A DNA stretch of 64,000 nt from an uncultured Chloroflexia bacterium (GCA_963813335.1 CAWEYL010000003.1:352001-416000); one strand, 5' to 3'; counted from the stretch's first letter, positions 5,448-38,667 are shown. The notes: generated by a model not told the origin, from the sequence alone. Made by a program: numbers and translations.

Positions 5448-5467
5448 GGAACGGCTCCTCGGTTCGG

Positions 5468-5517
5468 GCTGTCATGGGGAACGGCCGACGTTCGAGGGGA
5501 AAGGTTCCATCTCGTCC
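5468..5517 (-). promoter_or_regulatory. Candidate ECF-dependent promoter, copy 2
   Basis: Near-identical to 4312-4361; about 20 nt upstream of the lipoprotein start. Confidence 0.65.
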
Positions 5518-5595
5518 GCGGGAAGGTCCCGACGCGCACGGTGCGGGCCGAGGAGTCCAGTCGATCGGAGCGATCGCTCGACGATCAGGCAGGTA

Positions 5596-5639
5596 TGGTC
5601 GGGGCGAGAGGACTGGACCCGACAGAACCTACCTCATCG
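5596..5639 (-). repeat. tRNA-Pro 3'-end-derived att-like palindromic site (copy 3)
   Basis: TGGTCGGGGCGAGAGGA identical to 18754-18770; 41/44 identical to 12821-12864. Confidence 0.9.
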
Positions 5640-5806
5640 ACGGTCGCCGACCGGGTCTCCGGCGTGCTGTGATCCATCCAGTGAAGCGACCAGCGTTCCC
5701 GAAATCGGGATGGATCCCGAGTGTCCCAAACGGTCATGACTCAGGACACAGCCGACCGCCGTCGACTGACTGGCCGCGAGACGCTGGATGGACACTGGTC
5801 GGCCTG

Positions 5807-6205
5807 TCAGCCGGCGAGGACGCTGTCCACGCGGATGACCGGCGGATGCTCGAAATGCTTCTTCACCGCACATTGCTCCGCCGACCTGACGACTGCGTCG
5901 GCGTACTTGGCCGGGAACCCTTCGGGCAGCTCGATCGTGACCTGCACGTCGTTGACCAGGTGGGTCGCCGGGTCGAGCTGCATGCGCTGGACCAGACGGA
6001 TGCCCTCCGGCGAGATCCCCCGCTGCCGGCAGAAGCCCAGGACGTAGATGCCCGCGCAGGTGCCGATCGTCGAGAGGAACGTCGCGAAGGGCGTCGGGGC
6101 AGAACTCTCGCCGCCGCCCGCAGCGGGCTGATCGGTGGGCACGACGAATCCGCCGAAGTGCGCGTCGACGCGCGCGCCGCCGGGGAAGTCGATGGTCATC
6201 TCCAT
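5807..6205 (-). CDS. OsmC family protein
   Basis: TDQP...GGESSAPTPF...GTCAG and CAVK motifs. Confidence 0.88.
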   Translation of the reverse strand: MEMTIDFPGGARVDAHFGGFVVPTDQPAAGGGESSAPTPFATFLSTIGTCAGIYVLGFCRQRGISPEGIRLVQRMQLDPATHLVNDVQVTIELPEGFPAKYADAVVRSAEQCAVKKHFEHPPVIRVDSVLAG

Positions 6206-6232
6206 GGCATGAAACCTCGTTCTGTGGATGTC

Positions 6233-6631
6233 CTATTCAAGGGGTGCGCCGGCCGCGGCGAGGTCCGCCATCCCACCGGCGTCGACGATGTCGCTGAAGC
6301 CAGCCGCGACCATCTGGTCAGCGGCGACAGCGCTCCGCCGGCCGGAGTGGCAGTAGACGAGATAGGCGGCCGACTGGTCGAGGGACGAGATCCGCGACGC
6401 GAAATCGGCGGCCTCGACGCTGATGTTCTGCGCCCCGGCGATATGGCCGGCCGCGTATTCCGCATGGGTGCGGACGTCGATGACGACCCGCGAGTCCAGC
6501 ATGCGCACCGCCTCGCTCGGGTCGACCTTCTGGATGGCGGACCGTGCCGAGGAACCGCCGCATGCGGCAATGGCGATCGCCGCCAGGGCGAGAAGGACGA
6601 CGAGGCCGAAACGAGTGGAACGGTGGTTCAT
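6233..6631 (-). CDS. Rhodanese-domain lipoprotein
   Basis: Start MNHRSTRF at 6631; lipobox IAACGG; IDVRT..EY..GHIAGA; active site YCHSGRRS. Confidence 0.9.
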   Translation of the reverse strand: MNHRSTRFGLVVLLALAAIAIAACGGSSARSAIQKVDPSEAVRMLDSRVVIDVRTHAEYAAGHIAGAQNISVEAADFASRISSLDQSAAYLVYCHSGRRSAVAADQMVAAGFSDIVDAGGMADLAAAGAPLE

Positions 6632-6759
6632 CCTGATGCTCCGAGTGTCGTGGTCCGTCGGACCTGTCGGTCGACGGGGGGTGGTCGGTTCCTGGGCGAG
6701 GCGACGGTCGTGCCCATCGGCGATGCCATCGACGTGATCGGGCGGCCGCACGAGTCCAT

Positions 6760-7290
6760 TCATCGGTAGCAGATGCCCCCTCTGGCGCGCATCCGAAATC
6801 GCCAGGCCAGCGTGCCGGCAAGGAGGATCAGCGAGACGGCTCCGATGACGGGCTGGAGGGGCGCGAAGACCGTCATGGCCCCGCTGGTCCCGAGCAGGAC
6901 CAGGGCGATCTTGTTGCACACCGGGCAACCGATCGCCAGGAACGCACCGAGGCTGGCGACGGCCCCGAGGGTCGTCCCGTCGCCACCTCCGGCGGCCGTG
7001 CTGGCAGCGAGGAGGAACGCGTCTGGCTCGGCCGGGACGATCGGGCCGGGCGCCGTGTAGGTCGCGCCCAGCAGGCCCATGAGCGGAGCCGACATCAGCC
7101 ATATGGCGATCGCGAACGGCTCGACGGGCACCTGCCGACCGAACACCGGGTTGGGGATGATGGCCGCGACCACGCCGAAGGCGACGACCGACGCGGCCGT
7201 CCAGAGCACGGCATGCACGGCGAAGCGCCGGTCGATGGTTGCGAGCACCGCAGCCGCTGGACAGCCGACCGGCAGTGAACGACCGATCAC
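6760..7290 (-). CDS. Membrane protein with GCPVCNK motif
   Basis: Several TM segments, IIPNPVFGR, AIGCPVCNK; GTG start overlaps the DUF302 stop. Confidence 0.75.
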   Translation of the reverse strand: MIGRSLPVGCPAAAVLATIDRRFAVHAVLWTAASVVAFGVVAAIIPNPVFGRQVPVEPFAIAIWLMSAPLMGLLGATYTAPGPIVPAEPDAFLLAASTAAGGGDGTTLGAVASLGAFLAIGCPVCNKIALVLLGTSGAMTVFAPLQPVIGAVSLILLAGTLAWRFRMRARGGICYR

Positions 7291-7700
7291 GGCCGGTCCA
7301 GCGTCGCGATCACGCGTTGAAGGCGGGCCCTCGCCTCCTCGGCCACCAGCCGGATCGCCGGCAAGTCGACGATACCGAGGATGGCCATCGGATCCATCGC
7401 CTCGACGATCGTGCCCGTGCCGTCTTGGCGGAGGACGACGTTGCAGGGGAGCAGGGCGCCCACGGACGGATCGGCTTCGAGCGCCCGGTGAGCGAGCGGA
7501 GGGTTGCAGGCTCCGAGGATCACGTACGGTGGCCGCTCGATTCCCAGCTTGTCCCGCATCGTCGCCTTGATGTCGATCTCGGTCACGACGCCAAAGCCCT
7601 CGGCGCGAAGGGCGGCCTCGACGGCCGAGCGTGCGCTTGGGAGATCGCTCTTCATGCGCGTGCCGAAGGTGAAGCTGGTGGCGATTGCCATGGGGCTCAC
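7287..7700 (-). CDS. DUF302 domain protein
   Basis: GFGVVTEIDI, YVILGACNP, LLPCNV motifs. Confidence 0.9.
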   Translation of the reverse strand: MSPMAIATSFTFGTRMKSDLPSARSAVEAALRAEGFGVVTEIDIKATMRDKLGIERPPYVILGACNPPLAHRALEADPSVGALLPCNVVLRQDGTGTIVEAMDPMAILGIVDLPAIRLVAEEARARLQRVIATLDRP

Positions 7701-8056
7701 CTCGCGCTGGCCCGGAGAGCAGGCCCATTCGGGCGACGTGCAGGCGGCAGGACCCGCTCCAGGCGGCGCGCCACGATCGCATGGATGATGTCGCAGGCAT
7801 CGGTGATCGCCGGCTCGGCGAGCCGGTAGTACACGGTCGTCCCGGTGCGGCGGCCATCGACGAGTCCCGCCGATCGCATGACGGCGAGGTGTTGGCTCAC
7901 GTTCGGCAGTGCCACGCCGATCGCGGCAGCCAATCCGCCGACGGATCGCTCGCCTCCCCGCAAGGTATCGAGAAGCATGAGCCGTTTCGGGTCCGTCAGG
8001 ACTTTGCAGAGCTCTGCGTGGAGGCGGTACGTCTCCGACTTGTCGTCAAGGTCCAC
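7697..8056 (-). CDS. ArsR/SmtB family repressor with two Cys
   Basis: LCKVLTDPKRL, NVSQHLAVMRSAGLV, YYRL, DACD; GGAGG precedes GTG at 8056. Confidence 0.9.
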   Translation of the reverse strand: MDLDDKSETYRLHAELCKVLTDPKRLMLLDTLRGGERSVGGLAAAIGVALPNVSQHLAVMRSAGLVDGRRTGTTVYYRLAEPAITDACDIIHAIVARRLERVLPPARRPNGPALRASAR

Positions 8057-8112
8057 GGGATCGGGTGTCCTCCAGGAGGCGGTGCGTGGCGTAGTCCCTA
8101 CGGTACGCCTAT

Positions 8113-8128
8113 TTGCGTACTTGCGCAA
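8113..8128. promoter_or_regulatory. Candidate ArsR operator, TTGCGTA-CT-TGCGCAA
   Basis: Imperfect 7-2-7 inverted repeat in the AT-richer region upstream of the ArsR gene. Confidence 0.5.
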
Positions 8129-8287
8129 CTAACGTACTAATCGGTGCACCTGGAACCTCGCACGGACTCCGACTGGAATGAGCAACCGCGCGCGACTCGA
8201 CGGCGTCCCATCGACGCGGGCGCGACATGGGCGCACCAACCTAGGACCGCGATCGCGGGGACGTTCCCACGTGGCTCGCACAGAAAG

Positions 8288-8342
8288 TGGTCGGGGCGAG
8301 AGGGATAGCCCCGCCACCAACGACCTTCCCATCACGATGCGC
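8288..8342 (-). repeat. tRNA-Pro 3'-end-derived att-like palindromic site (copy 2, divergent)
   Basis: TGGTCGGGGCGAGAGG (16 nt identical to the tRNA end), then GCCCCG..ACCA forming an inverted repeat, then ACGATGCGC also found in the tRNA. Confidence 0.8.
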
Positions 8343-8432
8343 CTCGCCGAGCCGCCGGAGCCTTTCGACTGGCTCAAGAGCGCATGACGAGACGGCCATC
8401 CCGCCGAGCGCGCCACCGACCGCGAGGTCCGG

Positions 8433-8639
8433 GTGGTCGAAGCCGTCCTGGTCGCCGGGTCGGAGAAGGCCGCCGCCTACCGCCTCGGCCTGTCGCACTC
8501 GACCGTCAAGCACCACCTGGCGAACGCACGGACGAAGGTGGGGGCGGAGACGACGGCGCAGCTCGTGTGGATCCTGGCGGAGCGGCTGCCCGAGGCCGAA
8601 GACCTGGCCCCACCGGACGACGAACAGCAGTCCGCATGA
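8433..8639 (+). CDS. Small stand-alone LuxR-type HTH protein (5' end uncertain)
   Basis: (ATDREVR)VVEAVLVAGSEKAAAYRLGLSHSTVKHHLANARTKVG; ATG at 8384 is 1 nt out of frame. Confidence 0.6.
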   Translation: MVEAVLVAGSEKAAAYRLGLSHSTVKHHLANARTKVGAETTAQLVWILAERLPEAEDLAPPDDEQQSA

Positions 8640-8667
8640 CGAGGTCGTAGGGCTACTCGCGCTACCC

Positions 8668-8796
8668 CGAGGACTCTTCTTGGCACCCAAGACCGTCGAG
8701 GCGGACATCGCCAGCATCTTCTCGGAGCTCGAGCTCCTGCCCGCGCCGGACGATCACCTCGGGGTGCTTGCCGTCCTTGCCGATCTTCGAGGGGCG
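8668..8796 (+). pseudogene. C-terminal remnant of a NarL-type response regulator
   Basis: LFLAPKTVEADIASIFSELEL.P.PDDH..VLAVL resembles the NarL-family C-terminus; no receiver domain or start codon. Confidence 0.6.
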
Positions 8797-9062
8797 GGTG
8801 ACGCCGTCCTTCATGGTCACGTCGACCGCACAGCTCGGCCCGTTTCGCTCGCGCGGCTCGTGCTGTGGGTCCTGCGTTCAGGCGGGCTCGCGCTCCGACT
8901 CCTCCGTCGTCTCGACGCCGCCCGTTCCTTCGGTGCTCCCATGCCACGTGGATCCTGGGAGGGGCCCACGACGGCGGCGCCCGCCGGCTGGCGTTGCCGG
9001 CGCGCGGTGAAGATGGTCGGGGACGGGATGGTCGACGATCTGCGTGCCCAGGAGCTACCTCG

Positions 9063-9636
9063 CTAGGGGTTGGCCACGCGCCACGATTGGCTCACGCCGA
9101 CCCCATTGGTGTCGCCCGCCCCGTGGTCGCCGGCCGAGAAGTACAGGGGCGCGCCGTTGTAGGTGAGCTGCACGGTCCCGTCTGGCCGCGTCACCTGGGC
9201 CAACTTGCCGGTGATCCCGCTGACACCCGCGGTGGCGCCGTCACTCAGGAGCAGCGGCGGCCAGGTCTTCGAGCAGCTCGCGTTGCAGGCGCTCGTCCCA
9301 GAACCGGGCACGTCCTTGTTGAAGACGTAGACGGTCAGGGGATCCTCGCCAGTCGTCGAATTCGGCCACGAGGTACGTGCCCACCCCGGCCTTCGTTGTT
9401 GACGACAGGGTCCACACCGCGACGTTGTTGCCCTCCCCGCCAGCTGCCGTGGGAGCGGCCGATGCCGGTGCGACCGTGGTGGTCGCCGCTGGCACCGACG
9501 AGGCGCCGTTCGACGCACAAGCGCTGAGCGTCAGAGCGAGGGCCGCGACGATCACGATGAGCGCTCGGGCATGCAGGCGTTGGTTTGGTGCGCGCCCGGT
9601 TCCGGATCCCTTCTCATGCTGTGCGTTCATCTTCAT
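9063..9636 (-). CDS. COG4315-like secreted repeat lipoprotein (frameshift near 9360)
   Basis: Lipobox LSAC in one frame; TVYVFNKD...C...C..TWPP...QLTYNGAPLY..GD..GDTNG in the next frame. Confidence 0.8.
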
Positions 9637-9880
9637 GGTCCTTCCTCTCGGCTCCCCGCGCCGCTCTCCACGACGTGGATCTGGCCTAGTCAATTCGAGG
9701 TTGCTGCCGGCCCAGCCGACGCCGGGGCGCAGCGAACGCGTGCGTGGCACATTGCTGACATCACACCGCCGCCTTACAGGCGCACGGATCGTGGATCCGA
9801 AGCCCGGTCACTCAGCTCGCGGTCGTTCCCGTGCGCAGGACGACCGCGTCCGGGTTGCGAAGGGCGAGGCAGATCGGGCA

Positions 9881-10246
9881 CTACGCGAAGGCGACCGTCT
9901 TCGCGCCGGCCACGATCTCCTCGACCACCTTGGCCGCCCCGACGATCCTCGCGCCGTCGGCCACCTGCTCCTCGCCGATCCCGCGCGGCTTGGTGCAGGC
10001 GCCGCACAGCCAGACCTCGCCGCCGTTGCCGATGAACTGCGCATACAGGTCGGCCAGCACCGGCAGGCCCGGGGAGGCGATCCCGTCGAGGCCGCCGTGC
10101 GTTCCGAGCCAGACGGCGTCGATCGTGCACAAGACAACCGCGCTTTGTCCCGCGGTCGCCGCGATATTCGCCGCGACGAACGGGAGCGTCGCCCGCTCGG
10201 CCTCGTCCTTGCCGTGCGTGCAATTGAAGATCAGCATGTCGCTCAT
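9881..10246 (-). CDS. DsrE family protein
   Basis: THGKDEAERATLPF, VWLCGACTKPRGI. Confidence 0.88.
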   Translation of the reverse strand: MSDMLIFNCTHGKDEAERATLPFVAANIAATAGQSAVVLCTIDAVWLGTHGGLDGIASPGLPVLADLYAQFIGNGGEVWLCGACTKPRGIGEEQVADGARIVGAAKVVEEIVAGAKTVAFA

Positions 10247-10929
10247 CGGGTCCTCTCGATCGTGAACTGGTGGCGCCCGTCGCCGGTCGCCTCGGTGGAA
10301 CGGACCGTCTGGCCCAGCATCCGGGCCAGCGGCGGCAGGTCCTCCTTCGCCGCCGGGTCGCGCGCGACGACCACGAGGACGTCGCCTAGGGGGATGGCGC
10401 CGATGCGCCGGCGGAACTCGTCCGCCAGGCCGTCGGCGCAACCCATGGCCCCGGCGTCGAAGTGGTGGACGCCCGACTGTGCCGCGGCCCTGGGCGCGTC
10501 CCCCTCGCCAGCCGGCCGGAAGCCGGAGCAGAGGACGTCAAGCCGGGCGATGCGCCCGTCGGGGTCGACGTCGAGGTAGACCTGCTGCTCGACGAGCTCC
10601 CAGGCGCCGTCGGCGTAGGTGCGGAACTGGTACCGGGCCGAGGTGCGGTCGGCCATCCGCTCGGTGAGGACCTCCCGGACCTCGACGGCGTCCGCGTCGC
10701 CGAACCAGTCTGTGTACCTGGCGACGACCTCGGCGGCGCCGGTGACTGCCCCCGGGCCGCTCGGGATGAGGTATCGGAGGGCGGCGTCGCGAGCCAGGAG
10801 GTCGAACATGCCGCGGAAGTCGCGGGCCGCGACGGCCGCGACGAACTGCCGGGCTGCGGCGCGGGCTGGGTCGCCGCCGCTGGGTGCGGCCGGTGCGATT
10901 GTGGCCTGGCCGCCTGCCTGGGATGTCAA
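10243..10929 (-). CDS. SnoaL/NTF2-like domain fused to TusA-like sulfur carrier
   Basis: NTF2-like N-half ending VLCSGF; C-terminal FDAGAMGC...DPAAKEDL; TTG start after a purine-rich RBS. Confidence 0.78.
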   Translation of the reverse strand: MTSQAGGQATIAPAAPSGGDPARAAARQFVAAVAARDFRGMFDLLARDAALRYLIPSGPGAVTGAAEVVARYTDWFGDADAVEVREVLTERMADRTSARYQFRTYADGAWELVEQQVYLDVDPDGRIARLDVLCSGFRPAGEGDAPRAAAQSGVHHFDAGAMGCADGLADEFRRRIGAIPLGDVLVVVARDPAAKEDLPPLARMLGQTVRSTEATGDGRHQFTIERTR

Positions 10930-11004
10930 CTGCGTTTCTCCCCTGCTGGTTGGTGCAGGGGGCACGCTACGGGCTGGGCAACCCCGTGTCGTCCGGCGTT
11001 CGCC

Positions 11005-12660
11005 CTACGAATTGAGCGGTTCGAGCGAGTCGAGCAGGCCCTGCTGCATCGCGAACAGCGTGGCCGTCGAGCGCGTGGAGGCGCCGATCTTGGAGTAGAT
11101 GCGCTCGATGTGGGTGCCCGCCGTCTTGGGCGTGATCCCCAGGAGCCCGGCCACCTGCTTGTTCGACGCGCCCCGGGCGATCAGCAGCAGCACTTCCACC
11201 TCGCGCGCGGTGAGCCCGCCTGGCCCCGTGTGGCGGCGGGCCCGCCGCTGCCCCGCGGCCTCGAGCACCGCGTCAACCGCATCGGCCGCGAGGCGCCCAG
11301 CCCGGACCTCGCCCCGGAGCTGGTCGGCGGCCGCCCTCTCGGTCAGGGCCTCGCGGTACGGTCGTGCCTCGCTCATGGCGGCGAAGGCATCCGCGGCGGC
11401 GAGGATGCGGCCTGTGGCTGGGATCGCCGAGCCGGCGAGCCCGCGGTGGTACCCGGAGCCGTCGAGGCGTTCGTTCGCGAGCGCGGCGATCGCGCCGATC
11501 CGCCCGAGGGCGGGCGGTCGGGAGAGCATCCGGTGCGTGTAGTAGGCGTGCATCCGCATCCGCTCTGCCTCGCTCTTGGACAGCGGGCCGGGCTTCTCGA
11601 GGATCGTGGCCGGCAGGCCGTTCATCCCCAGGTCGTGAAGCAGTCCGGCCCGGCGGAGCGTTGCGGCGTCAGCGGGCGGCAGGCCAGAGAGCTCGGCCGC
11701 CAGCGCCGCCAGCGCCGCCACCCTGCGCGAGTGTCCGCCGCGCGAGGACGACCGGAGGTCGGTGAAGTCCGCCAGGGCCTCCATGGCCGTGTCGATCTCC
11801 GCTTCCGGCAGGCGACGCTGCAGGCCGACCTGGTCCGCGATCTCGTCGTTCCAGTCGCCGACCTTGTCGAGGCCAGCGAGGACGGCCTCGGCGTCGGCTA
11901 AGAAGGCGTCCACCACGTCGGGGGCGAACTGCGTGCCCCGCCACTCCTTGGCCAGCTTGACGGCGCCGGGACGGCCGTGGATGCGGTGCAGGACCTCTAC
12001 GCTGTCGGCGACGTGGAAGAGGCGCACGGCTGGTGCGATCTGCTCCCCGCCGACCCCCTCGGGCACGCCCTTTCCGTCCCACCGCGTGAACACCTGCAGG
12101 AGCTGGTGCGCGACGCCGGCGCCCAACCCGAGGCGCTCGGCCATCCGGGCGGTGGAGATGCAGTGCGACATGAAGCCGCGGGCGACCGGGGCCCCACCGG
12201 TGGACACGAGCGCGACGCCCAGCCTGAGCCGCTGGACGAGGGGCGCGCCGGCTCCCACCTTGCGCAGCGAGTAGGCCATCATCGGCAGGCCGGCCCGGTC
12301 CACGCCGAAGCTGTCACGCCGAAAGGCGATGTCGTCGCCGAACCAGTGCGCCACCTCGGGCGTGTCCGCGACGCAGCCCACCCAGGCAAGCGTCACGACG
12401 TAGTAGAGATCCTGGCGGTCGGCCGCTCCGAGGCCCATCCGCGCGGCGAGGCGGTCGGCGATCAGCCACGAGCGGAGGGCGTGCTCCATGGGCAGGCCGA
12501 GGCCAAGGTCGGTGGCCAGCGAGAAGGCGGCCACGAGGTCGGCCGAGCGGATCCCCGGATCGAGCTCGAGGTCGGGCGAATGGGGCGCAGCGGGTCGCAC
12601 TGCTGCAGTATCCCCCACCGACAGCGCCGGGCCGACGAGCGTCGGCCGGGCCCTGTTCAC
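11005..12660 (-). CDS. HD-domain (HD-GYP-like) protein with C-terminal LuxR HTH
   Basis: SLATDLGLG, RWDGKG.P, LLHDLG, ERLDGSGY, ILAAAD, LTAREVEVL. Confidence 0.9.
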   Translation of the reverse strand: MNRARPTLVGPALSVGDTAAVRPAAPHSPDLELDPGIRSADLVAAFSLATDLGLGLPMEHALRSWLIADRLAARMGLGAADRQDLYYVVTLAWVGCVADTPEVAHWFGDDIAFRRDSFGVDRAGLPMMAYSLRKVGAGAPLVQRLRLGVALVSTGGAPVARGFMSHCISTARMAERLGLGAGVAHQLLQVFTRWDGKGVPEGVGGEQIAPAVRLFHVADSVEVLHRIHGRPGAVKLAKEWRGTQFAPDVVDAFLADAEAVLAGLDKVGDWNDEIADQVGLQRRLPEAEIDTAMEALADFTDLRSSSRGGHSRRVAALAALAAELSGLPPADAATLRRAGLLHDLGMNGLPATILEKPGPLSKSEAERMRMHAYYTHRMLSRPPALGRIGAIAALANERLDGSGYHRGLAGSAIPATGRILAAADAFAAMSEARPYREALTERAAADQLRGEVRAGRLAADAVDAVLEAAGQRRARRHTGPGGLTAREVEVLLLIARGASNKQVAGLLGITPKTAGTHIERIYSKIGASTRSTATLFAMQQGLLDSLEPLNS

Positions 12661-12820
12661 CAGCCGGCCGGCGCCAGATCGACACTCAAGGCGAGCGGAT
12701 GCCTGTGCCAGGTCCTGCGCTCAGCCGGGCGCCGGCCCGGGACGCGCACCAGCAGGCCCGGCCGGAGGGCTCGGTGGGCCGCAGCCTATTTGCCTTCGTC
12801 CGCGTGCCAGAAGGTCAGTC

Positions 12821-12864
12821 TGGTCGGGGCGAGAGGACTCGGCCCGACGGAACCTACCTCATCG
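12821..12864 (-). repeat. tRNA-Pro 3'-end-derived att-like palindromic site (copy 1)
   Basis: TGGTCGGGGCGAGAGGA identical to the tRNA end; GTCGGGGCGAG-AGGA-CTCGGCCCGAC inverted repeat (1 mismatch). Confidence 0.9.
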
Positions 12865-12927
12865 CTGCGAACGCGTTGAGGCTCTCTCGAGCGGGAGAAG
12901 GTCTCGAACTCCACTTGCCCCTTGATC

Positions 12928-15858
12928 TCAGCCCGTCGTCGCCGGGGTAAGCAGCCCCAGGGTCGCCAGACGTTGGACGGCCTCCGCACGCGTCTGACAG
13001 TCGAGCTTCAGGAGCGCGCTGCCGACGTGCATCTCGACGGTGCGCGGGCTGATGAAGAGCGACTGGCCCATCTGACGGCTCGTCATGCCCCGGGCGACGA
13101 GGCGCACGACCTCGAGCTCGCGCCGAGTCAGGCCATGGTCCGCGAGCCTGCGTGCCTCGCGTGGCCCCAGCCGACGCTCGACGGACTCGCCGATCATCGC
13201 GAGGTCGGCGGCGATCGCCCGCCCCAGTGGGATCGCGCCGAGGCGGCGGGCCGTGCGGGCCGCGGCCACGAGCAGCGCGACGCCCTCGTCGCGGCGGCCG
13301 GCGCGAACGACCGCGATCCCGGCGCGGCGCCCGATCTCGGCCCGGTCCAGCGGCAGGTCGCGGGAGGAGACCGCTTCGAGGGCGCTGACGAGATGCTGCG
13401 CCGCGGTTTCGACTTCCCCGTCGATCCAGGCTGCGGCGCCGAGCGTCGCGCCGAGAGCCGCTACCGCCTCGGGCTGGGCAGTCTGGGCGGCGATCCGGGC
13501 GAGGGCTTCGGCGCAGGCCCGGACGCCAGCGCCGTCCCCGAGATCTCCGTAGACGGTGGCCGCCCAGCGCAGCGCGGGCACGATGTAGTGGCGCTCCTCC
13601 GTCCGGCTCCACCGCTCGCGCAGTCGGGCACAGCGCTCCAGCACGGCGGCCTCGTCACCGTCGAGTCGGTCGCACAGGGCTAGCCCCCACGTCGACGTCA
13701 GGTCCATGGCCGCGAGCTCGATGTGGCGGGCGAGCTGGACCGATGCCTCCAGATGTGGGCGCGCTCGCGTCGCGCTTCCGCGTAGCGCGGCGATGATGCC
13801 GACGATGCCTTCGGCGACGGCGCGGGCATGGAGCGTCGCGTCCCCCGAGCGGATCACGTCGCGCCCCATCTGCTCGGCGCGCGACCATTGCCCGGTCTGC
13901 CAGAGAACCATCGTCATGCACGCTACGCACAGTTGCGCCGATGACCCGAGCGCCTGGGTCCGGCAGTACTCGGCGCCTTCGACGTAGGCCGACCGCGCCG
14001 GATCGTAGTGACCGCCGTGCTCGAGCGAGTCGGCGAGCCGCTGGTACAGCTCGGCGGCCGCCGCGACGTGGCCCCCGTCGAGCGCCAGCGACAGACCCTC
14101 GCGGACAAGGGCGAGACCTTCCTCGAACCGGCCGAGTCGCGCCCGCACATTGCCGTCGAGTCCGGTCGCCCGGGCCACCAGGTCGACCCGCCCGGCGGCA
14201 GCAGCCTCCGTCCGCGTCACCGTCAGGAGCTCCTGTGCGGCGCTGAAGCTCCCAGCGGAACGGAGATGGGCGGCAGCCGCGAGGCGCTCGGTCGCCGCTT
14301 CTGCCGGGAGACCGGCCGCGGCGAAGGCGTCAGCGGCGGCGAGGCGGGCGTCGATCGCTCGCGCCCACCGGCCGAGGACTTCGAGGCAGCGGGCCCGGCG
14401 CGCATGCGCCTGCGCGGCGAGGTCGCCCCGGCCCTCCTCAGCCCGCTCGGCTGCCGCCCGCTCCCACGCCCGGGAGGCATCGGCTGGCGAGCCCGCCAGC
14501 TCCGCGGACTCGGCCAGCCGCTCGGTGATGGCGACCCGGGACGCGAGCGTGCCGCGGTCCTCCTCGAGCGCGCGGCGGTAACCGTCCGCGGCATCACGAT
14601 AGGCGTGGACGCGACGCGACGCATCGGCGCTCGAGAGGAGCCAGGGGATGGCCTCCTGAGGCTCGCCGCCGCGGAGCCAGTGCTCGGCGATGACCAGCGG
14701 CTCGGCTTCCCGATCCGCGAGCAACGCCGCGGCGTGACGGTGTCGCGAGCGGCGCTCGGGAGCCGGCAGCTCGTCGACCAGCACCTCGCGAACGAGCGCG
14801 TGGCGGAACCCCACGACCCCGTCCCGATCGGTGAGGATGCCGCACTCGAGACCCTCCCTCGACCACGCACCGGCGTCCGGGACGAGCTCGTCGATGAGCG
14901 ACCCGTCGATCGGATCGCCCAGCAGCGCCGCCGTCACGAGCGCCCGACGGGCCGCGGGGCTCAGGCCGTCCGTGCGCGCGAGGATACTGTCGCGCAGGGT
15001 GTCGGGGATCGGCAGGTCGGCCCGGGCGAGCGTGGCCCGGTCGCCCGAGACGGATACGGCGTCATCTCGGAGCAGGGCAGCGGCGAGCTCCTCCACGAAG
15101 AGCGGAAGGCCCTGACTCCGATCGACGAGCCGCCCGGCCAGTGTGTCGTCCGGCCGGGCGCCCAGCACCTGACTTGCCAGCTCGATGGTCGCCTCGGCAT
15201 CCAACGCGCCGAGCTCCACCTCCTCGAACCGTCCGATCCTGCGGAGTTCCACCCGCAGGCGCCGGACCCCACTGCCGCGCGGGATCTCGTCGGTGCGGTA
15301 TGCGCCGATCGCCAGAAGGGGCTCGTGGGCGGCTCGCGCGGCGATCACCGCGAGGGCCTCCAGGGTGGCATGGTCGGCATCCTGGAGATCCTCCACGACG
15401 AGCACGAGCGGGCGGCGTCGGGCGAGCTCGACGAGGACCTCGCATACGACCTCGAGGACATCAGCTCGGCCCTCGGCGATGACCGGCGACGCAGGCTCGA
15501 GGACCCGCGACGGGACTTCCGTCGATGGATCCAGGCCCAGCAGGATGCGGGCCGCGTCGCCGCCAGGCCTGCCACGCCCGACCCGCTCGATGACGGCTGG
15601 ACCGATCTCGGGCCAGGCGGGGTGGAAGCGGATCGCCGCCACGAGAGGCCCCAGCGGCATGGCGCCGGCACGACCCGCCGTGCCGCCCAGGACCACCAGG
15701 CCTCGCCGGTCGAGGGCGTGCTCGATCAGCGCCGTCTTGCCGATCCCCGCCTCACCGGCGACCAGGAGCACGCCACCGCGGCGCCGCCGAGCGTCAGTGA
15801 CCGCGCGACGAACGGTGGCGAGCTCTCGATCTCGACCGACCAGCGTGGAGGACCGCAT
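12928..15858 (-). CDS. Large ATP-binding LuxR-family regulator (AAA-TPR-HTH)
   Basis: LVGRDREL, GEAGIGKT, VEDLQDAD, GLPLFVEEL; C-terminal LTRRELEV HTH. Confidence 0.92.
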   Translation of the reverse strand: MRSSTLVGRDRELATVRRAVTDARRRRGGVLLVAGEAGIGKTALIEHALDRRGLVVLGGTAGRAGAMPLGPLVAAIRFHPAWPEIGPAVIERVGRGRPGGDAARILLGLDPSTEVPSRVLEPASPVIAEGRADVLEVVCEVLVELARRRPLVLVVEDLQDADHATLEALAVIAARAAHEPLLAIGAYRTDEIPRGSGVRRLRVELRRIGRFEEVELGALDAEATIELASQVLGARPDDTLAGRLVDRSQGLPLFVEELAAALLRDDAVSVSGDRATLARADLPIPDTLRDSILARTDGLSPAARRALVTAALLGDPIDGSLIDELVPDAGAWSREGLECGILTDRDGVVGFRHALVREVLVDELPAPERRSRHRHAAALLADREAEPLVIAEHWLRGGEPQEAIPWLLSSADASRRVHAYRDAADGYRRALEEDRGTLASRVAITERLAESAELAGSPADASRAWERAAAERAEEGRGDLAAQAHARRARCLEVLGRWARAIDARLAAADAFAAAGLPAEAATERLAAAAHLRSAGSFSAAQELLTVTRTEAAAAGRVDLVARATGLDGNVRARLGRFEEGLALVREGLSLALDGGHVAAAAELYQRLADSLEHGGHYDPARSAYVEGAEYCRTQALGSSAQLCVACMTMVLWQTGQWSRAEQMGRDVIRSGDATLHARAVAEGIVGIIAALRGSATRARPHLEASVQLARHIELAAMDLTSTWGLALCDRLDGDEAAVLERCARLRERWSRTEERHYIVPALRWAATVYGDLGDGAGVRACAEALARIAAQTAQPEAVAALGATLGAAAWIDGEVETAAQHLVSALEAVSSRDLPLDRAEIGRRAGIAVVRAGRRDEGVALLVAAARTARRLGAIPLGRAIAADLAMIGESVERRLGPREARRLADHGLTRRELEVVRLVARGMTSRQMGQSLFISPRTVEMHVGSALLKLDCQTRAEAVQRLATLGLLTPATTG

Positions 15859-15864
15859 CCTGGG

Positions 15865-16224
15865 TCAGAAGGTTAACGAAGCGGCACCCGATGCGAGGAG
15901 CTCCACGACCTGCGCCGCGCTGACGATGGACGCGCCGTCGACCAGGTCGTCCGCGGTGATCGCGCGTGGCTTCGTGCACGCGCCGCAGGCCCAGATCCGA
16001 CCGCCGGCCGCAACGAACTGGGCCATGACATCCGAAAGCGCCGGGAGCGTATCGGCCACGACGCCGTCGGCACGGCCCTTCACGGCGAGCCAGGCTCCTT
16101 CGATGGTCAGAAGCACGATCGCATCCTGATCGGCGGTCGCCGCGACGTTCGCCACGACGAAGGGGAGGGTCGCGCGCTCCGGGTCTTCCGGTCCGTGCGT
16201 CGCGTTGACGATGATCGTAGCCAT
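15865..16224 (-). CDS. DsrE family protein (paralog of 9881-10246)
   Basis: THGPEDPERATLPF, IWACGACTKPR. Confidence 0.88.
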   Translation of the reverse strand: MATIIVNATHGPEDPERATLPFVVANVAATADQDAIVLLTIEGAWLAVKGRADGVVADTLPALSDVMAQFVAAGGRIWACGACTKPRAITADDLVDGASIVSAAQVVELLASGAASLTF

Positions 16225-16931
16225 CAGTTCGTGCCTCCTGAGGTCGATTCGTTTCCCGGCGCAGCAGCGCGTCGGATGAAGTAGCGGGCAGCGGCCTCGC
16301 CGGCCTGCTCGCGGCCGACCACGTGGTGGCCGGTCATGCGCCCCCATGAACGGAGGCCGTCCTCCGCCGAGGGGTCGTCGGTCAGGATCTCGAGCGTCTG
16401 GCCCGGCTCGAGGGCAAGGACCTCCGCCCGGATCGTCGGGGTCAGCGTGGCGCAGCTCAGGCCGAGTCCATCGAGCCGACGATCGGCGCGAACGCCAGCC
16501 GATGGCGCGGTGGCGATCGGACCAGCCTCTTCGACGATCGCGAAGCCCGAGCAGACCAGGGCGACGTCCGTCAGGCGGCCGTCGGCCACCCGTGCCACGA
16601 CGCGCTGCTCGACGACCCGGCGGATGCCCTCCTCCCAGAGCCGGATGCGGAAGCCAACCAGGAGCCGGTCGACGATCGAGTCCACGCTCGAGGCCAGCAG
16701 CTCCCGGTCCGAGGTCCCTTCGAACCAGCCCTCGATGACGGCGCGCGTGGCCGCGGCGGTCGATTCCTGGCGGATCGTCCGCGGGGTCAGCGCCCGGAAC
16801 CGGACATCCGGCGCAAGAAGCTGCTCGAACGCGTCGAAGTCCCCGGCGACGACGTCGTCGATGAGCGTCTGGCCGAGCCGCTCGGCGGCCGGGTCGTGTG
16901 GGATCGCGCGGTCGGGCGCGGAAGCGGTCAT
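16224..16931 (-). CDS. SnoaL/NTF2-like domain fused to TusA-like sulfur carrier (paralog of 10243-10929)
   Basis: LLAPDVRFRALTP, LVCSGF, LDGLGLSC...LEILTDDP. Confidence 0.8.
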   Translation of the reverse strand: MTASAPDRAIPHDPAAERLGQTLIDDVVAGDFDAFEQLLAPDVRFRALTPRTIRQESTAAATRAVIEGWFEGTSDRELLASSVDSIVDRLLVGFRIRLWEEGIRRVVEQRVVARVADGRLTDVALVCSGFAIVEEAGPIATAPSAGVRADRRLDGLGLSCATLTPTIRAEVLALEPGQTLEILTDDPSAEDGLRSWGRMTGHHVVGREQAGEAAARYFIRRAAAPGNESTSGGTN

Positions 16932-17109
16932 CTCGGTACCTCCGGGCGTGCGGTCGAGGTCGACTCGACGGTATGTCGCGCGCACGACCCGAACAACCGG
17001 AGCACTACGGGGTTTCCGGTGCGAGGGCGCGCCCGACAGCTGCCGTCCGTCGCGTGACTCGGCGGCCGTGGGAGTAGCATCACCGCCTCGCGGGAGGAGG
17101 TCGTTGTCG

Positions 17110-17976
17110 ATGTCGACATCGGAGGTTCGGGTCTTCGACCCAGTCGCATACAAGAGCACCACCCGCGAGCAATGGCAGACGACCGCCGAGGCGTGGCACC
17201 GGTGGGGGCCGACGCTGGAGGCCTGGCTTGGCCATGCGACCCAGGCGATGCTCGACATGGCTGGCATCAAGGGCGGTGCTCGGGTCCTGGACGTCGCCGC
17301 GGGTGCGGGCGGGCAGACGATCGCGGCGGCCCAACGGGTCGGGCCGAGCGGGACTGTTCTCGCCACCGACATCTCCCCCGTGATCCTCGAATTTGCCCAG
17401 GCTGAGGCCTCGACGGCCGGACTGTCGAACGTGACGACCCGAGTGATGGACGGCGAGGACCTCGAGGTGGAGCCCGGATCGTTCGATGCCGTGATCTCGC
17501 GCCTCGGACTGACCTACTTCCCCGACCAGCAAGAGGCGCTCGGGAACATGCGCCGCGCATTGCGCGACGGCGGACGGGTCGCGGCCATCGTCTACTCGAC
17601 GCCCGAACGCAATCAGTTCAACTCGATCCCGATGTCGATCATCAGGCGACGTGCTGCGCTGCCGCCGCTGCTCCCAGGACAGCCCGGGCCGTTCAGCCTC
17701 GGAGCGCCGGGCGTGGTCGCGGCCGCCTTAGAGACCGCCGGCTTTCACGACGTCGAGACCCGCCTGGTCGACGCGCCACTTCGGCTGACGTCGGCCGCCG
17801 AGTGTGTTCTGCTCGAACGGGAGTCGTTCGGAGCGCTGCGCCAGATGCTCTCCGGCTTGTCCGAGTCCGAACGCAACGAGGCTTGGGTCGAGATCGAAAC
17901 GGCTTTGGCCACGTTCGAGGGTGCGAACGGTTTTGTCGGGCCGTGCCAGCTGCTTGTCGCCGCAGGGATCAGGTAG
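17110..17976 (+). CDS. Class I SAM-dependent methyltransferase (UbiE-like)
   Basis: VLDVAAGAG, TDIS, FDAVISR; GGAGG RBS upstream. Confidence 0.9.
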   Translation: MSTSEVRVFDPVAYKSTTREQWQTTAEAWHRWGPTLEAWLGHATQAMLDMAGIKGGARVLDVAAGAGGQTIAAAQRVGPSGTVLATDISPVILEFAQAEASTAGLSNVTTRVMDGEDLEVEPGSFDAVISRLGLTYFPDQQEALGNMRRALRDGGRVAAIVYSTPERNQFNSIPMSIIRRRAALPPLLPGQPGPFSLGAPGVVAAALETAGFHDVETRLVDAPLRLTSAAECVLLERESFGALRQMLSGLSESERNEAWVEIETALATFEGANGFVGPCQLLVAAGIR

Positions 17977-18130
17977 CTCGGCAACATCCACCGCCATCGG
18001 CTTGGACGGGTCGGCCAGCACGCAGCGACGAGCGGCATGGCCCGGACCTGAAGGTATCCTCCTCGCGCCCACCCCGCGCAAGAACGCGCTATGGTTGGTG
18101 CACGCGGAGGAGGCCCACCACAAGTTGCGA

Positions 18131-18403
18131 ATGGCGGATCTCCAGCCCGGCTGGGCGGTGGTCGGGAATGATGGAAAGCGGGTCGGCGCCGTGCAGCGGG
18201 TCGGCCAGAACTACGTGCTCACCTCGATCGACGGGCGGGCCGGTGAGATCTACATTCCCGCTTCTGCGATCGCCAACGTCGACCACGACGTCATCCATCT
18301 CTCGATGCCGCAGGGAGACGTCGCACAGATGGGATGGGGGCAGCCGCCGCGGGACGACGACGTCCCGACCACGTCCGAGTCCGACCTCCACCGACATGTC
18401 TGA
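18131..18403 (+). CDS. Small PRC-barrel/DUF2171-like protein
   Basis: GWAVVGNDGKRVGAV...IYIPASAI; GGAGGAGG upstream. Confidence 0.7.
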   Translation: MADLQPGWAVVGNDGKRVGAVQRVGQNYVLTSIDGRAGEIYIPASAIANVDHDVIHLSMPQGDVAQMGWGQPPRDDDVPTTSESDLHRHV

Positions 18404-18420
18404 CTCGGCGTCGACCGCGA

Positions 18421-18744
18421 TCAGCGGTGAAGCGTCGGCCGGTAGGTGAGCTCCTGGGTGTGGCCGTCGAGGGTCCTGCCCGCGATCAACTCGAGGTCGA
18501 AGTCGGCTGCACCTTCGAAGATCGGGCGCGCTCCGGTCTGGCCTGTGACCACGGGGAAGATGGTGACCTGCACGCGGTCGACCAAGCCGGCTGCCAAGAG
18601 CGCTCGGTTCATCGACAGGCTGCCGTGCGCGCGTAGAGGCACGTCGGACTCTTCCTTGAGCCGGGCGACCACATCGACGGCGTCGCCGCGCACCAAGGTC
18701 GCGTCCGGCCAATCGAGTGGCTCATCGAGCGTCCTCGAGACGAG
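18421..18744 (-). pseudogene. 5'-truncated dihydrofolate reductase/RibD C-terminal family gene
   Basis: VSRTLDEPLDWPDAT...GSLSMNRALLAAGLVDRVQVTIFPV; N-terminal half is missing and the frame runs into the tRNA. Confidence 0.8.
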
Positions 18745-18751
18745 AGGCAGG

Positions 18752-18830
<79 letters not shown>

Positions 18831-19028
18831 ACCGAGGTGCCCGTTGTACAGGGCCTGCGGATGATAGCGCACCAGGCCGCAATGCCACCGCGAGCACGGA
18901 TCAGTGCGTGCCGTGCCCGTACCTGCCCATGACCATGGTCCCATCGGGTACCGGACCACCGCGACCCTGACCCGGCCTCGCGCGCGAGCCTATGGTGCAG
19001 AGAGGCGACACCCCGGGGCGGGTGCCGC

Positions 19029-21461
19029 ATGCCATACGGAGCGCCTGGCTTGCCCGATACCGGATCGGACGACCGACCACACCGCGGACGCCGCATCCGA
19101 CCGCCGCACTGGCTGGGACCTCGCGCGGTCCTCGTCGCGGCGGTGGTCGGCTCGGTGCTGGGCGCCTCCCTGCTCACGGCGGAGGTCGTCACCGACCACG
19201 TCCGCGATTCGGCCACCGACGAGGCCGTGCGCAGCGCCGAATCGGTGGTCCGCGCCTTCGTCGACCCGATCCTGACCGAGGGCGCGATGGGCACCCCCGA
19301 CAGCGCCGGCGGCCGGCAGATCGATGCCCAGCTCGAACGGCTGGTCGGGTCGGGCAACCTCCTCCGCATCAAGATCTGGGGTTCGGACGGCACCGTGCTG
19401 TTCTCCGACCTGCCGGCGCTGCGCGGCCAGCGCTTCGATGTCGATGCCGACCTGCAGGAAGCCTTCGCCGGCGAGATCTCGCACGACATCTCGGACGCCT
19501 CGGCAGCCGAGAACGAGTTCGAGCACGGCATCGCCGACCGGCTTGCTGGAGGTCTACCTCCCGGTCACCGGTCCGGATGGCAAGGTCATCGCCGCCTACG
19601 AGATCTACCAGGATGCGGCGGCCATCGACGCCAACATCGCTGCCACCGGCGCGATGTCTTCCTGATCGCGGCCGCGATCGCGATCCTGCTCGCGGCCCTG
19701 CTGATCGCCGCGTTCGACGGCACCTCGCGGCGACTCGACCGCCAGAACCGACGGCTCCGCCAGCTGACCGACACGCTGGCCGACAGCGAAGCGCGCTTCC
19801 GCTCCCTGGTCCAGCACGCCTCGGACCTCTTCGTGGTCGTCGACCGCGACGGACGGATCATGTACGAGAGCGTCGCGGTCGAACGGCTCCTCGGCTACAG
19901 CCCGGACGACCGGGTCGGCCAGGCCTTCGTCGACGAGGTCCATCCCGACGATCGCGACATCTTCCTGCGCCATCTCGCGGCCATCGCGGAGCGTCCTGAC
20001 GGGGAGATCGTGGGCGAGACACGGCTCCTGCATCGCGACGGCCGCTGGCTTGCCTTCGAATGGACCGCGCACAACCTGCTCGACGACCCGGCTGTCGGCG
20101 GCCTGGTCATCAACGCGCACGACGTGACCGAACGCACGGACCTCGAGGCCCAGCTCCGCCACCAGTCGTTCCACGACCCGCTGACCGGGCTCGCCAACCG
20201 CGGCCTCTTCACCGACCGCGTCGCCCACTCGCTCGCCCGGCGCCGCCGCGGCCGGGCGATGCCGGCGGTCCTGCTGATCGACCTCGACGACTTCAAGAAC
20301 GTCAACGACACCCTCGGCCACGGCTCCGGCGACCGCCTCCTCGTCGAGGTGTCGCGGCGCCTCACGGACACGATCCGCCCGGGCGACACCGCCTGCCGGC
20401 TGTCCGGCGACGAGTTCGCGGTCCTGCTCGAGGAGATCGGCGATGTCGCCCACGCCGTGGAGATCGCCGACCGGCTCCTCGCGCAGCTGGCGAGCCCCGT
20501 GGACATCGGTCGCGAGGTCTCCGTGACCGCCAGCGTCGGCATCGCCATGGTGGACACCGAGGTCGACGACGCGGACGACCTGCTCGCCCGGGCCGACGTC
20601 GCGATGTACGCGGCCAAGACCGCCGGCAAGGGCCGCCACGAGTGCTACGAGCCCGCGATGCGGGCACGGGCCTGGTCGCGCCTGGAGCTGGAGGCGGAGC
20701 TCCGCCGGGCGATCGGCGCCGGCCAGATCGCCGTCGTCTACCAGCCGATCATCGACCTGCGCAACCGCGCCCCGGTCGAGATGGAGGCGCTCATCCGCTG
20801 GGACCACCCGCAGCGCGGCCGCCTCGCCCCGGCCGACTTCATCGGCGTCGCCGAGGAGAGCGGGCTGATCGTGCCGCTCGGACGGTTCGTCCTCGAGGAG
20901 GCCTGCCGGCAGGCGAGCGCGTGGCCCCGCCAGCCCGGCGGCCGTCCGATCGACCTGAGCGTCAACCTCTCGAGCCGCCAGTTCCGCGACCCCGGGCTGC
21001 TCGAGACGATCTCGTCGGCGCTCGAACGGGCGGACCTCTCGCCGTCGAACCTCAAGCTCGAGATCACCGAGTCCGCGATGCTCGACGCCGACGCCTCGGA
21101 CCTCCTGATGCGGCGCATCCGGGACCTCGGGGTGCGCATCGCCGTCGACGACTTCGGGACCGGGTTCTCCGGCCTCAGCTACTTCCAGCGCTTCCCGCTC
21201 GACACGCTCAAGATCGACCGGTCCTTCGTCGCCGGGCTGGGCCGCGACCCGCGCAGTGGTGCCATCGTCCACGCCACGATCGCGTTCGCGAAGGCGCTCG
21301 GGCTGACGGTCACCGCCGAGGGCATCGAGACCGAGGACCAGTTCGAGCGGGTCCGCGCGCTCGGCGCCGACCTCGGCCAGGGCTACCTGTTCTCGAAGCC
21401 GCTCGAGGCGGCCGCCGTCGCGCCGTACCTCGCCGCCGCCCGGAAGGCCAGCGCCGCCTAG
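19029..21461 (+). CDS. Membrane PAS-GGDEF-EAL protein (compensating frameshifts near 19540-19650)
   Basis: HDPLTGLANR, SGDEF, MEALIRW, DDFGTG, LKIDRSF, AEGIET, QGY. Confidence 0.93.
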   Translation: MPYGAPGLPDTGSDDRPHRGRRIRPPHWLGPRAVLVAAVVGSVLGASLLTAEVVTDHVRDSATDEAVRSAESVVRAFVDPILTEGAMGTPDSAGGRQIDAQLERLVGSGNLLRIKIWGSDGTVLFSDLPALRGQRFDVDADLQEAFAGEISHDISDASAAENEFEHGIADRLAGGLPPGHRSGWQGHRRLRDLPGCGGHRRQHRCHRRDVFLIAAAIAILLAALLIAAFDGTSRRLDRQNRRLRQLTDTLADSEARFRSLVQHASDLFVVVDRDGRIMYESVAVERLLGYSPDDRVGQAFVDEVHPDDRDIFLRHLAAIAERPDGEIVGETRLLHRDGRWLAFEWTAHNLLDDPAVGGLVINAHDVTERTDLEAQLRHQSFHDPLTGLANRGLFTDRVAHSLARRRRGRAMPAVLLIDLDDFKNVNDTLGHGSGDRLLVEVSRRLTDTIRPGDTACRLSGDEFAVLLEEIGDVAHAVEIADRLLAQLASPVDIGREVSVTASVGIAMVDTEVDDADDLLARADVAMYAAKTAGKGRHECYEPAMRARAWSRLELEAELRRAIGAGQIAVVYQPIIDLRNRAPVEMEALIRWDHPQRGRLAPADFIGVAEESGLIVPLGRFVLEEACRQASAWPRQPGGRPIDLSVNLSSRQFRDPGLLETISSALERADLSPSNLKLEITESAMLDADASDLLMRRIRDLGVRIAVDDFGTGFSGLSYFQRFPLDTLKIDRSFVAGLGRDPRSGAIVHATIAFAKALGLTVTAEGIETEDQFERVRALGADLGQGYLFSKPLEAAAVAPYLAAARKASAA

Positions 21462-38590: not shown

Positions 38591-38667
38591 TGGTCGGGGA
38601 GGCGGGATTCGAACCCACGATCTCGTGCTCCCAAAGCACGCGCGTTGCCAGGCTACGCTACTCCCCG
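38591..38667 (-). tRNA. tRNA-Pro (anticodon TGG), CCA encoded
   Basis: CGGGGAG.../CTCCCCG-ACCA; anticodon stem CGTGC-TTTGGGA-GCACG; GGTTCGAATCC. Confidence 0.97.

Follow-up and report, generated by a model that had tools for sequence, protein, structure and literature searches.

Tyrosine integrases are the enzymes generally associated with tRNA genes as targets, and serine integrases are the preferred tools of genome engineering. The classical target of a tyrosine integrase is the 3' end of a tRNA gene, with an identity block of 16-17 bp; Williams is said to have distinguished, in 2002, sublocation classes of the tyrosine-integrase att sites within tRNA genes. The two enzyme families differ in how they cut: a tyrosine recombinase requires an identical overlap of 6-8 bp straddling the axis, whereas a serine recombinase, bound as a dimer to a palindrome, cuts at its centre with a 2-bp stagger. 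In the case of the SSV1-type archaeal integrase, which is a tyrosine recombinase, the int gene contains attP and is divided into two parts.

According to Rutherford et al. 2013 (PMC3783163), the sites of large serine recombinases (LSRs) such as those of A118/LI, Bxb1 and phiC31 are imperfect palindromes of roughly 50-60 bp with a central dinucleotide, and attP- and attB-type half-sites have an outer motif in common that is shifted by about half a helical turn. In the A118-type integrase of Listeria, as described there, the 9-bp motif of the zinc ribbon occupies half-site positions 16-24 in attP (PMC3783163); in attB the same motif was inferred, with support from mutagenesis, to be closer to the centre by 5 bp (Rutherford et al. 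2013, PMC3783163), and the shift was proposed as the way in which the integrase tells attP from attB (PMC3783163). As for stacked elements, the report on Prochlorococcus tycheposons (bioRxiv 10.1101/2020.12.28.424599) describes successive integrations at one tRNA in which newer elements push older ones outward, leaving partial tRNA copies between segments, degraded integrases and cargo-only segments; 910 of 937 tycheposons carry tyrosine recombinases and the rest an LSR.

The locus analysed here lies in a window of 64,000 nt from an uncultured Chloroflexia bacterium (GCA_963813335.1 CAWEYL010000003.1:352001-416000), and it is like these systems in several ways. Stacks of islands at a tRNA gene, with partial repeats of the tRNA, are familiar, for example from tycheposons; here too, partial tRNA repeats between successive elements and degraded integrases were both present, as were cargo-only segments. 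Unlike tycheposons, the arrays examined here yielded only serine recombinases, and the host is a Limnocylindria-type member of the Chloroflexota. With the classical sites of tyrosine integrases the locus has in common a target at the tRNA 3' end, an identity block reaching the CCA end and a restored gene; it differs from them in that no tyrosine integrase is associated and the axis falls on the border of the identity block and not within it. As in SSV1, the putative attP is inside the recombinase gene and integration would alter the gene end, although in the present case the exchange would be confined to the final 2-40 or more codons of a serine recombinase gene. The locus also resembles the LSR systems outlined above in its imperfect palindrome and, possibly, in a putative central dinucleotide and a shifted outer motif, and the enzyme of its relatives has Resolvase, Recombinase and (weakly) Zn-ribbon domains. 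Judged from their sequences, the sites nevertheless appear to differ from known LSR sites: the target is a tRNA 3' end, which the 16-bp identity block would rebuild; attP is embedded in the recombinase's own 3' reading frame; and at least two LSR lineages, 37-40% identical, have the core in common and read it in different frames. Among the papers examined on serine integrases and LSRs at tRNA genes, no description of such a system was found.

Copies of the tRNA-Pro(CGG) 3' end and their arms

The repeated core is the 3'-terminal 16 nt of a tRNA-Pro(CGG) gene, at 18754-18769 when read on the + strand. The sites of the window and their parts are as follows.

18754-18830, minus strand: tRNA-Pro(CGG), the putative integration target (ARAGORN; Rfam RF00005, 63.3 bits)
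12793-12820, + strand: left arm L_a (..tccgcgtgccagaaggtcagtc), a flank also found in the relatives G010, G136, G120, G107, G087 and G005
12821-12836, + strand: core copy at the junction pointed out by an earlier note on this DNA, 16/16 identical to the tRNA 3' end
12837-12864, + strand: right arm R_A, a candidate P'-type half-site, dyad 10/14
5583-5639, + strand: almost complete attP-like palindrome, composed of an L_b-like left arm (5583-5595), a core (5596-5611) and R_A (5612-5639)
8288-8360, + strand: core copy with right arm R_B (GATAGCCCCGCCACCAACGACCTTCC...), inner dyad 8/14

The 17-mer TGGTCGGGGCGAGAGGA (+ strand) takes in the CCA end of the tRNA, the 3' strands of its acceptor stem and T-stem, and a single base of the T-loop. 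It is present without mismatch at 5596, 12821 and 18754 and with one mismatch at 8288, where the core itself is identical at 16/16 positions and the 17th base is a G; all copies have one orientation. When three mismatches were allowed, 0.92 chance matches were expected in the window and 3 of 100 shuffles reached 4. The significance of the copies therefore rests on their quality of 0-1 mismatch. Throughout the assembly (2.54 Mb in 7 contigs, 81% complete) there are five matches with at most one mismatch, all on the + strand of contig C3 and within 38.4 kb, and the reversed 17-mer, used as a control over the same 2.54 Mb, gave 0 matches.

The fifth copy (C3:332389-332405, same strand, one mismatch) is located 20 kb left of the window and would stretch the array to 38 kb; the 25 kb that separate it from the copy at 5596 hold ordinary-looking metabolic and two-component genes. 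A second proline tRNA, with anticodon TGG, is found at 38591-38667 of the window, on the same strand and 20 kb to the right; its 3' end is unlike the core, and no repeats of that 3' end were seen. ARAGORN also reported long tRNA-like genes of 94-98 nt: Arg-CCT (C1:963942-964035), Pro-CGG (C3:553761-553855) and Gln-CTG (C3:95835-95932). The Arg-CCT gene lies 2.4 kb from a tyrosine recombinase match in a 1254-codon open frame and is possibly another integration site.

Among the genomes of the genus, the exact 16-mer core was found in 118 of 131 (256 exact matches, against 0 for the reversed control), and 52 of the 131 hold 2-11 copies. We fetched 15 arrays and 20 further stretches, plus recombinase loci. 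In the fetched arrays the copies are direct repeats, 0.56-25 kb apart, and the tRNA stands at one end wherever it was fetched. These yielded 113 distinct junctions, of which 24 continue into the tRNA body and 89 into other sequence; they are a chosen, non-random subset of the 256 matches, taken from multi-copy contigs and phylogenetically related. The left arms are of types L_a (..gaaagaaggtcagtc) and L_b (..cgacgatgaggtaggtt), and the right arms of types R_A (12 nt followed by GAACCTACCTCATCG), R_B (GATAGCCCCGCCACCAACGACCTTCC..), R_C (AGACAAGCCACCCTTAGGCACCTT..) and many rarer ones. R_B is the commonest right arm, with a cluster of 25 junctions, and many R_A arms fall into a cluster of 19. 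L_a is found with R_A, R_B, R_C and the tRNA, and L_b with R_A and the tRNA. Because the arms are reshuffled in this way between genomes, around an invariant core, these data indicate that the sites are junctions of site-specific recombination. A clear unoccupied attB flank was sought among the tRNA-proximal left flanks and none was found, all of them being element-derived in appearance or unclear.

Two observations on individual arrays were made in passing. In locus L032 (G087:C3; 229-1437 and 11520-12728), an 11.3-kb unit is present twice in tandem, with identical 45-nt left flanks, near-identical R_B arms and identical scores for the two Fic-domain genes; it looks like one element integrated in tandem or like an unequal exchange between cores. 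At G005:C5:741564, G091:C6 (L083) and L096, the right arms start with AGTCGGGGCGAC or a close variant, which is a direct, not an inverted, repeat of core bases 3-12 and is not explained by the half-site model.

Symmetry of the junctions and probable position of the crossover

Across the 89 non-tRNA junctions, identity stays at 0.97 or more over positions 1-16 and falls to 0.55 at position 17. Scanning the possible axes of symmetry over 33 right-arm clusters revealed a lone peak at 15.5, that is, between G15 and G16, where 0.51 of the positions are complementary vs 0.21-0.39 for fourteen other axes. The mean arm score is 7.15/14, a value reached in 0 of 20,000 resamples, whereas random 14-mers of these arrays average 4.06; the arms and arrays were hand-chosen and are phylogenetically related, so that these P values overstate independence. 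The bulk of the dyad signal comes from T19, G21, C24, C25 and C28, which are kept at 0.75-0.85; all five are present in the tRNA arm, which has a score of 6/14, and the element-side arms therefore mirror the core better on average than the tRNA does. The arm of G126 is a perfect 11-bp mirror. Symmetry extends to the outer parts of the sites: the consensus of 53 left-arm clusters mirrors that of the 33 right-arm clusters at 12/14 outer positions (cluster-weighted), including AGGT at -8 to -5 vs ACCT at 36-39, and the inner and outer dyads have one common axis, between G15 and G16. Between the L_b/R_A type and the G090 type, two positions of the outer motifs appear to change in a compensatory manner. 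Coincidence of the axis with the end of identity is expected of a serine recombinase: a 2-bp crossover fits, whereas an overlap of 6-8 bp does not. Strand exchange would most likely take place at the G15-G16 dinucleotide.

The window's own sites follow this pattern to different degrees, with mirrored inner positions numbering 10/14 at 12821, 9/14 at 5596 and 8/14 at 8288; for a random 14-mer from these arrays, a score of 10/14 has a P of about 0.001, and 2.4% score 8/14 or more. At 12821, the bases at 12838-12848 (CTCGGCCCGAC) are the mirror of core bases 3-13, and the dyad is best read as 11-4-11, GTCGGGGCGAG-AGGA-CTCGGCCCGAC, with one G.G mismatch. They are followed at 12850-12864 by GAACCTACCTCATCG, a tRNA-like outer motif in which ACCT stands at 36-39 from the core start vs 30-33 in the tRNA; GAACCTACCTCATCG occurs twice in the window (5625 and 12850) vs 0.03 occurrences expected, and 0 of 100 shuffles had two. 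The site at 5596 is more complete. Its left flank, read in reverse complement, agrees with the GAACCTACCTCATCG on the right at 11/14 positions, forming an outer inverted repeat, and the site is thus an imperfect palindrome of 58 bp, whose full fold gives z values of -3.3 and -5.0 on the two strands; this left flank is identical to one junction of G107 at 123/134 positions. At 8288, GCCCCG in the arm mirrors CGGGGC in the core on the same axis, and CGACCT is shifted outwards by 6 bp relative to its place in the tRNA. The outer dyad of this site scores 1/14, showing that palindromy is not universal among the junctions. The R_B arm (8304-8360 of the window and 25 other junctions) is conserved over more than 50 nt and holds CGACCT and ACGATGCGC in tRNA order, as if it were a long, remodelled 3' half of tRNA-Pro.

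Much of what the earlier note had described at these sites holds. All the strings that it quoted are present in the window as written, and its description of the right flanks at 5596 and 12821, a segment complementary to the core followed by a return of tRNA-like sequence, is confirmed, as is its remark that the copy at 8288 builds the dyad with different sequence. It had read the dyad at 12821 as 10-6-10; the dyad is there, but the 11-4-11 reading is better, and the outer inverted repeat had been missed. The right flank at 5596 likewise has an 11-4-11 dyad. The dyad is kept in the larger set of arms, as the axis-specific excess over 33 clusters shows. The selection on structure that had been suggested is borne out as a dyad symmetry of the DNA, differing arm families complementing the same core, and not in the sense of an RNA structure.

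The outer motif appears to be displaced relative to the tRNA. The tRNA stretch CTCCGACCT occupies positions 25-33, and a similar stretch is found at 31-39 in the three commonest arm families: at +6, the match is 6/9 in R_A (AACCTACCT), 7/9 in R_B (CAACGACCT) and 4/9 in R_C (TAGGCACCT). When all 33 clusters were weighted equally, the +6 signal was weak (3.5/9 vs a background of about 2.5) and the value at -3 was higher (4.2/9), the latter because the motif overlaps the inner dyad there. The claim of a displacement is therefore confined to the three commonest families. On the element side, the motif falls on half-site positions 16-24. The putative displacement is 6 bp, compared with 5 bp in A118-type sites (PMC3783163). 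By analogy, the 12-nt 'insert' between core and tRNA-like sequence may be the inner, mirrored part of the recognition site, and the tRNA-like sequence that resumes after it the outer motif in attP register, where it would be the part contacted by the zinc ribbon.

Recombinase genes beside the core and the origin of the junctions

A crude rule based on GC3 served to call ORFs in the 15 arrays, with a coverage of 50-90%, seven boundary-crossing ORFs being skipped. Among the 268 ORFs obtained (148 + 120), Pfam searches identified 0 Phage_integrase, 2 Resolvase and 2 rve_3 fragments; seven further ORFs of the window gave no integrase in Pfam. An LSR ORF is thus present in 2 of the 15 arrays examined, each time directly left of a core copy and reading through the core. 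In G136, the L_a flank is the end of a 544-aa ORF with a Resolvase domain. The G090-type LSR has, in this order, Resolvase (71.5 bits), Recombinase (24.2 bits, over the cut-off) and a sub-threshold Zn ribbon; compared with solved structures, LSR matches were weak and limited to the catalytic domain (resolvase family and phiC31 integrase, E 3e-7 to 3e-5). The first 487 residues of the G090-type enzyme, used as query, had matches in 31 of the 131 genus genomes, and the core lies downstream of the match on the same strand at 17 of 30 fetched loci, the other 13 being contig ends or more distant paralogues. In a species-wide collection, 9/9 close homologues (71-100% identity) end at the core, which they read as ..VG(L/M)VGARG..; some of these duplicate the genus set, and their records are MAGs of Candidatus Limnocylindrales, Chloroflexia or Chloroflexi and one 'Gaiellales'. 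The end at the core is lacking in an LSR of 28% identity that comes from another phylum.

C-terminal fragments of 50-220 residues of the G136-type LSR are found immediately left of cores in G136 and ten further arrays. From these fragments it follows that L_a is the 3' end of a G136-type gene, and L_b that of a G090-like gene. As the core falls in a different frame in each of the two LSR lineages (ORF nucleotide 1520 vs 1462), core and arms are conserved at the DNA level and not as protein. What follows the core also sets the end of the protein: the G136-type LSR has a tail of two codons past the core when joined to the tRNA vs 38 when joined to R_C, and the G090-type LSR gains at least 31 codons when joined to the tRNA.

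In the genome to which the window belongs, 81% complete, a search with PF00239 gave 0 Resolvase-family matches. When the two LSRs were used as tblastn queries against this genome, the matches were to translations of the core or tRNA or to a lipoprotein gene, and in four left flanks, with E values up to 20, to noise and a few codons overlapping the core. Because this genome has neither a Resolvase match nor a significant remnant, the link with LSRs rests on its relatives. At 12793-12820, the left arm is similar to the terminal 3' bases of a serine recombinase gene of the G136 type, apparently shortened by a deletion; the protein-level remnant in this flank is too short for significance by itself (tblastn E = 0.18). 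Since the genome has no serine recombinase, its array is probably a fossil, and the three sites of the window are probably inert fossils bounding three cargo segments.

The comparison of these sequences makes it quite likely that the sites are attL-type or attP-like junction scars of LSR elements serially integrated at the tRNA-Pro(CGG) 3' end. Mobile elements with LSRs would integrate successively into this 3' end; as in intact relatives, the LSR gene would stand at the tRNA-proximal end of the element, its frame running through the core, and attP would lie inside the 3' end of the gene. The 16-bp core would be kept because the element must rebuild the tRNA 3' end. What the earlier note called an added arm would be the P' half-site of the element: its inner part is a mirror image of the core's acceptor-stem half and would offer the same bases to a second recombinase subunit, and its outer part would carry the tRNA-like motif (..CC.ACCT..), moved away from the centre by about 6 bp relative to the tRNA. 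Most likely, the mirror symmetry reflects the docking of a serine recombinase and is not an RNA signal. Two points do not sit easily with an origin by LSRs. An identity block of 16 bp is more typical of tyrosine integrases than of textbook LSR sites. To our knowledge, the attL and attR product sites of LSRs are not integration substrates, and the growth of tandem arrays is therefore not explained by integration through LSRs.

That a tyrosine integrase made the junctions, the dyad representing paired core-type sites around a 6-8-bp overlap of Xer/dif or lambda type, would agree with the target and the length of the identity block, and the genome does have three PF00589 genes. These lie elsewhere, none being on contig C3, and no PF00589 match was found on the array contigs of G005, G010 and G011 or among the 268 array ORFs; moreover, identity stops one base past the axis, whereas a symmetric overlap would take in the variable positions 17-19, and the genes that abut the core are LSR genes. 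We consider this origin improbable. In Xer/dif, a replicon has a single site of 28 bp, in which a spacer of 6-8 bp separates arms of 11 bp; the five copies within 38 kb and the 4-bp spacer of the 11-4-11 reading speak against the suggestion of such a site in the earlier note. Its broader proposal of a recombinase core site survives as far as the junctions and the fixed-axis dyad are concerned, with an LSR in place of the Xer or tyrosine enzyme and four bases in place of the 6-bp spacer. The alternative offered there, an attC-like single-strand hairpin, belongs with the idea that the sites are integron-like, or are REP- or MITE-like palindromic repeats or terminators derived from a tRNA. Arrays of cassette-like segments between imperfect palindromes of about 58 bp invite that idea, but an integron array has an IntI-type integrase, an attI and short cassettes, mostly of one gene and in one orientation. 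Here, no integron integrase was found by PF00589 in the genome or among the array ORFs, and the segments are 0.56-25 kb long, with several genes in mixed orientation. The copies are also not dispersed as REP or MITE repeats would be, the five matches in the genome all lying within 38.4 kb beside the tRNA, and some junctions, such as 8288, are not palindromic. An attC, REP, MITE or terminator origin is thus scarcely credible.

The sites could instead act as RNA, the arm and the acceptor 3' strand forming a hairpin that ends in ..ACCA and serves as a signal for processing, CCA addition or stability. On the tRNA-sense strand the hairpins are indeed stable (-17.1 kcal/mol, z -4.0, for the inner dyad of 12821; -31.0, z -5.0, for the full site at 5596), and their 3' end is the tRNA's own ACCA. 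However, a palindrome folds equally well on either strand, and ARAGORN and Rfam, the latter at a permissive threshold over 5000-19500, found only the true tRNA. G.U mismatches number 13 on the tRNA-sense strand vs 31 on the other, with 182 other mismatches, and so show no excess. In stems of 11 bp, the first C of CCA is paired, as is the discriminator base, and CA alone stays free; the symmetry reaches the left flank, past the tRNA 3' end, and is mirrored there at the population level; and in relatives the sites are coding, being inside recombinase frames. A function as RNA is therefore highly improbable, and the CCA-ended minihelix or processing signal proposed earlier finds no support, with no Rfam or ARAGORN match at the copies and no tRNA-sense G.U excess. 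It is hardly plausible either that the dyads of the window are chance complementarity in a genome of 72% G+C, superimposed on ordinary att scars. The share of random 14-mers reaching 8/14 and the 6/14 of the tRNA itself would allow it for a single site, but the excess over 33 clusters is specific to one axis and absent from the 20,000 resamples, the outer consensus mirrors at 12/14, the same five positions are kept, and one arm, that of G126, is a perfect mirror over 11 bp.

If the junctions were indeed made by LSRs, a serine integrase family appears to use a tRNA 3' end, its diverged arms pairing with one invariant host site; such sites would allow comparisons of which attP and attB positions are important and of how the outer motif comes to be shifted. 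Serial integration would also account for a large hotspot of accessory genes in an uncultured lineage of fresh water and soil, where it is seen in 52 of 131 genomes. More tentatively, and with some doubt on our part, the Limnocylindria-type Chloroflexota may harbour a radiation of LSRs specialised on the 3' end of one tRNA-Pro, with attP in the last codons in at least two frames and with P' arms that are 'stretched' copies of the tRNA. Were this true, dozens of natural P' arms for one attB would amount to a natural experiment on the discrimination of attP from attB. Integration would, moreover, swap the C-terminal tail of the recombinase, whose activity or stability could depend on the state of integration.

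Cargo of the segments

The core copies of the window delimit three segments, for which Pfam gave the following content.

5612-8287: segment 1, 2.7 kb, with OsmC, rhodanese, DUF302 and an ArsR-type regulator, and no recombinase
8304-12820: segment 2, 4.5 kb, with a Lipoprotein_15 repeat protein, a SnoaL/TusA protein and an HD-GYP-type HD_5 + LuxR regulator
12837-18753: segment 3, 5.9 kb, with an AAA_16/TPR/LuxR regulator, DsrE, TusA/SnoaL, a methyltransferase and a RibD_C fragment

Pfam found no recombinase in segment 2 (8304-12820) or in segment 3 (12837-18753), and tblastn of segment 3 with the two LSRs gave no significant remnant. The other ORFs of the 15 arrays likewise encode mixed accessory cargo: regulators, transporters, toxin-antitoxin-type domains and sulfur-transfer proteins. 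In the window, the cargo at 5807-8125, 10243-10962 and 15865-17372 is rich in genes for sulfur transfer and stress, comprising OsmC, rhodanese, DUF302, the ArsR regulator, DsrE and two TusA/SnoaL proteins. A gene pair encoding an ECF-type sigma factor and a PD40 beta-propeller protein is found at 2610-4276 of the window and recurs in or beside the arrays of G016, G107, G089 and G011.
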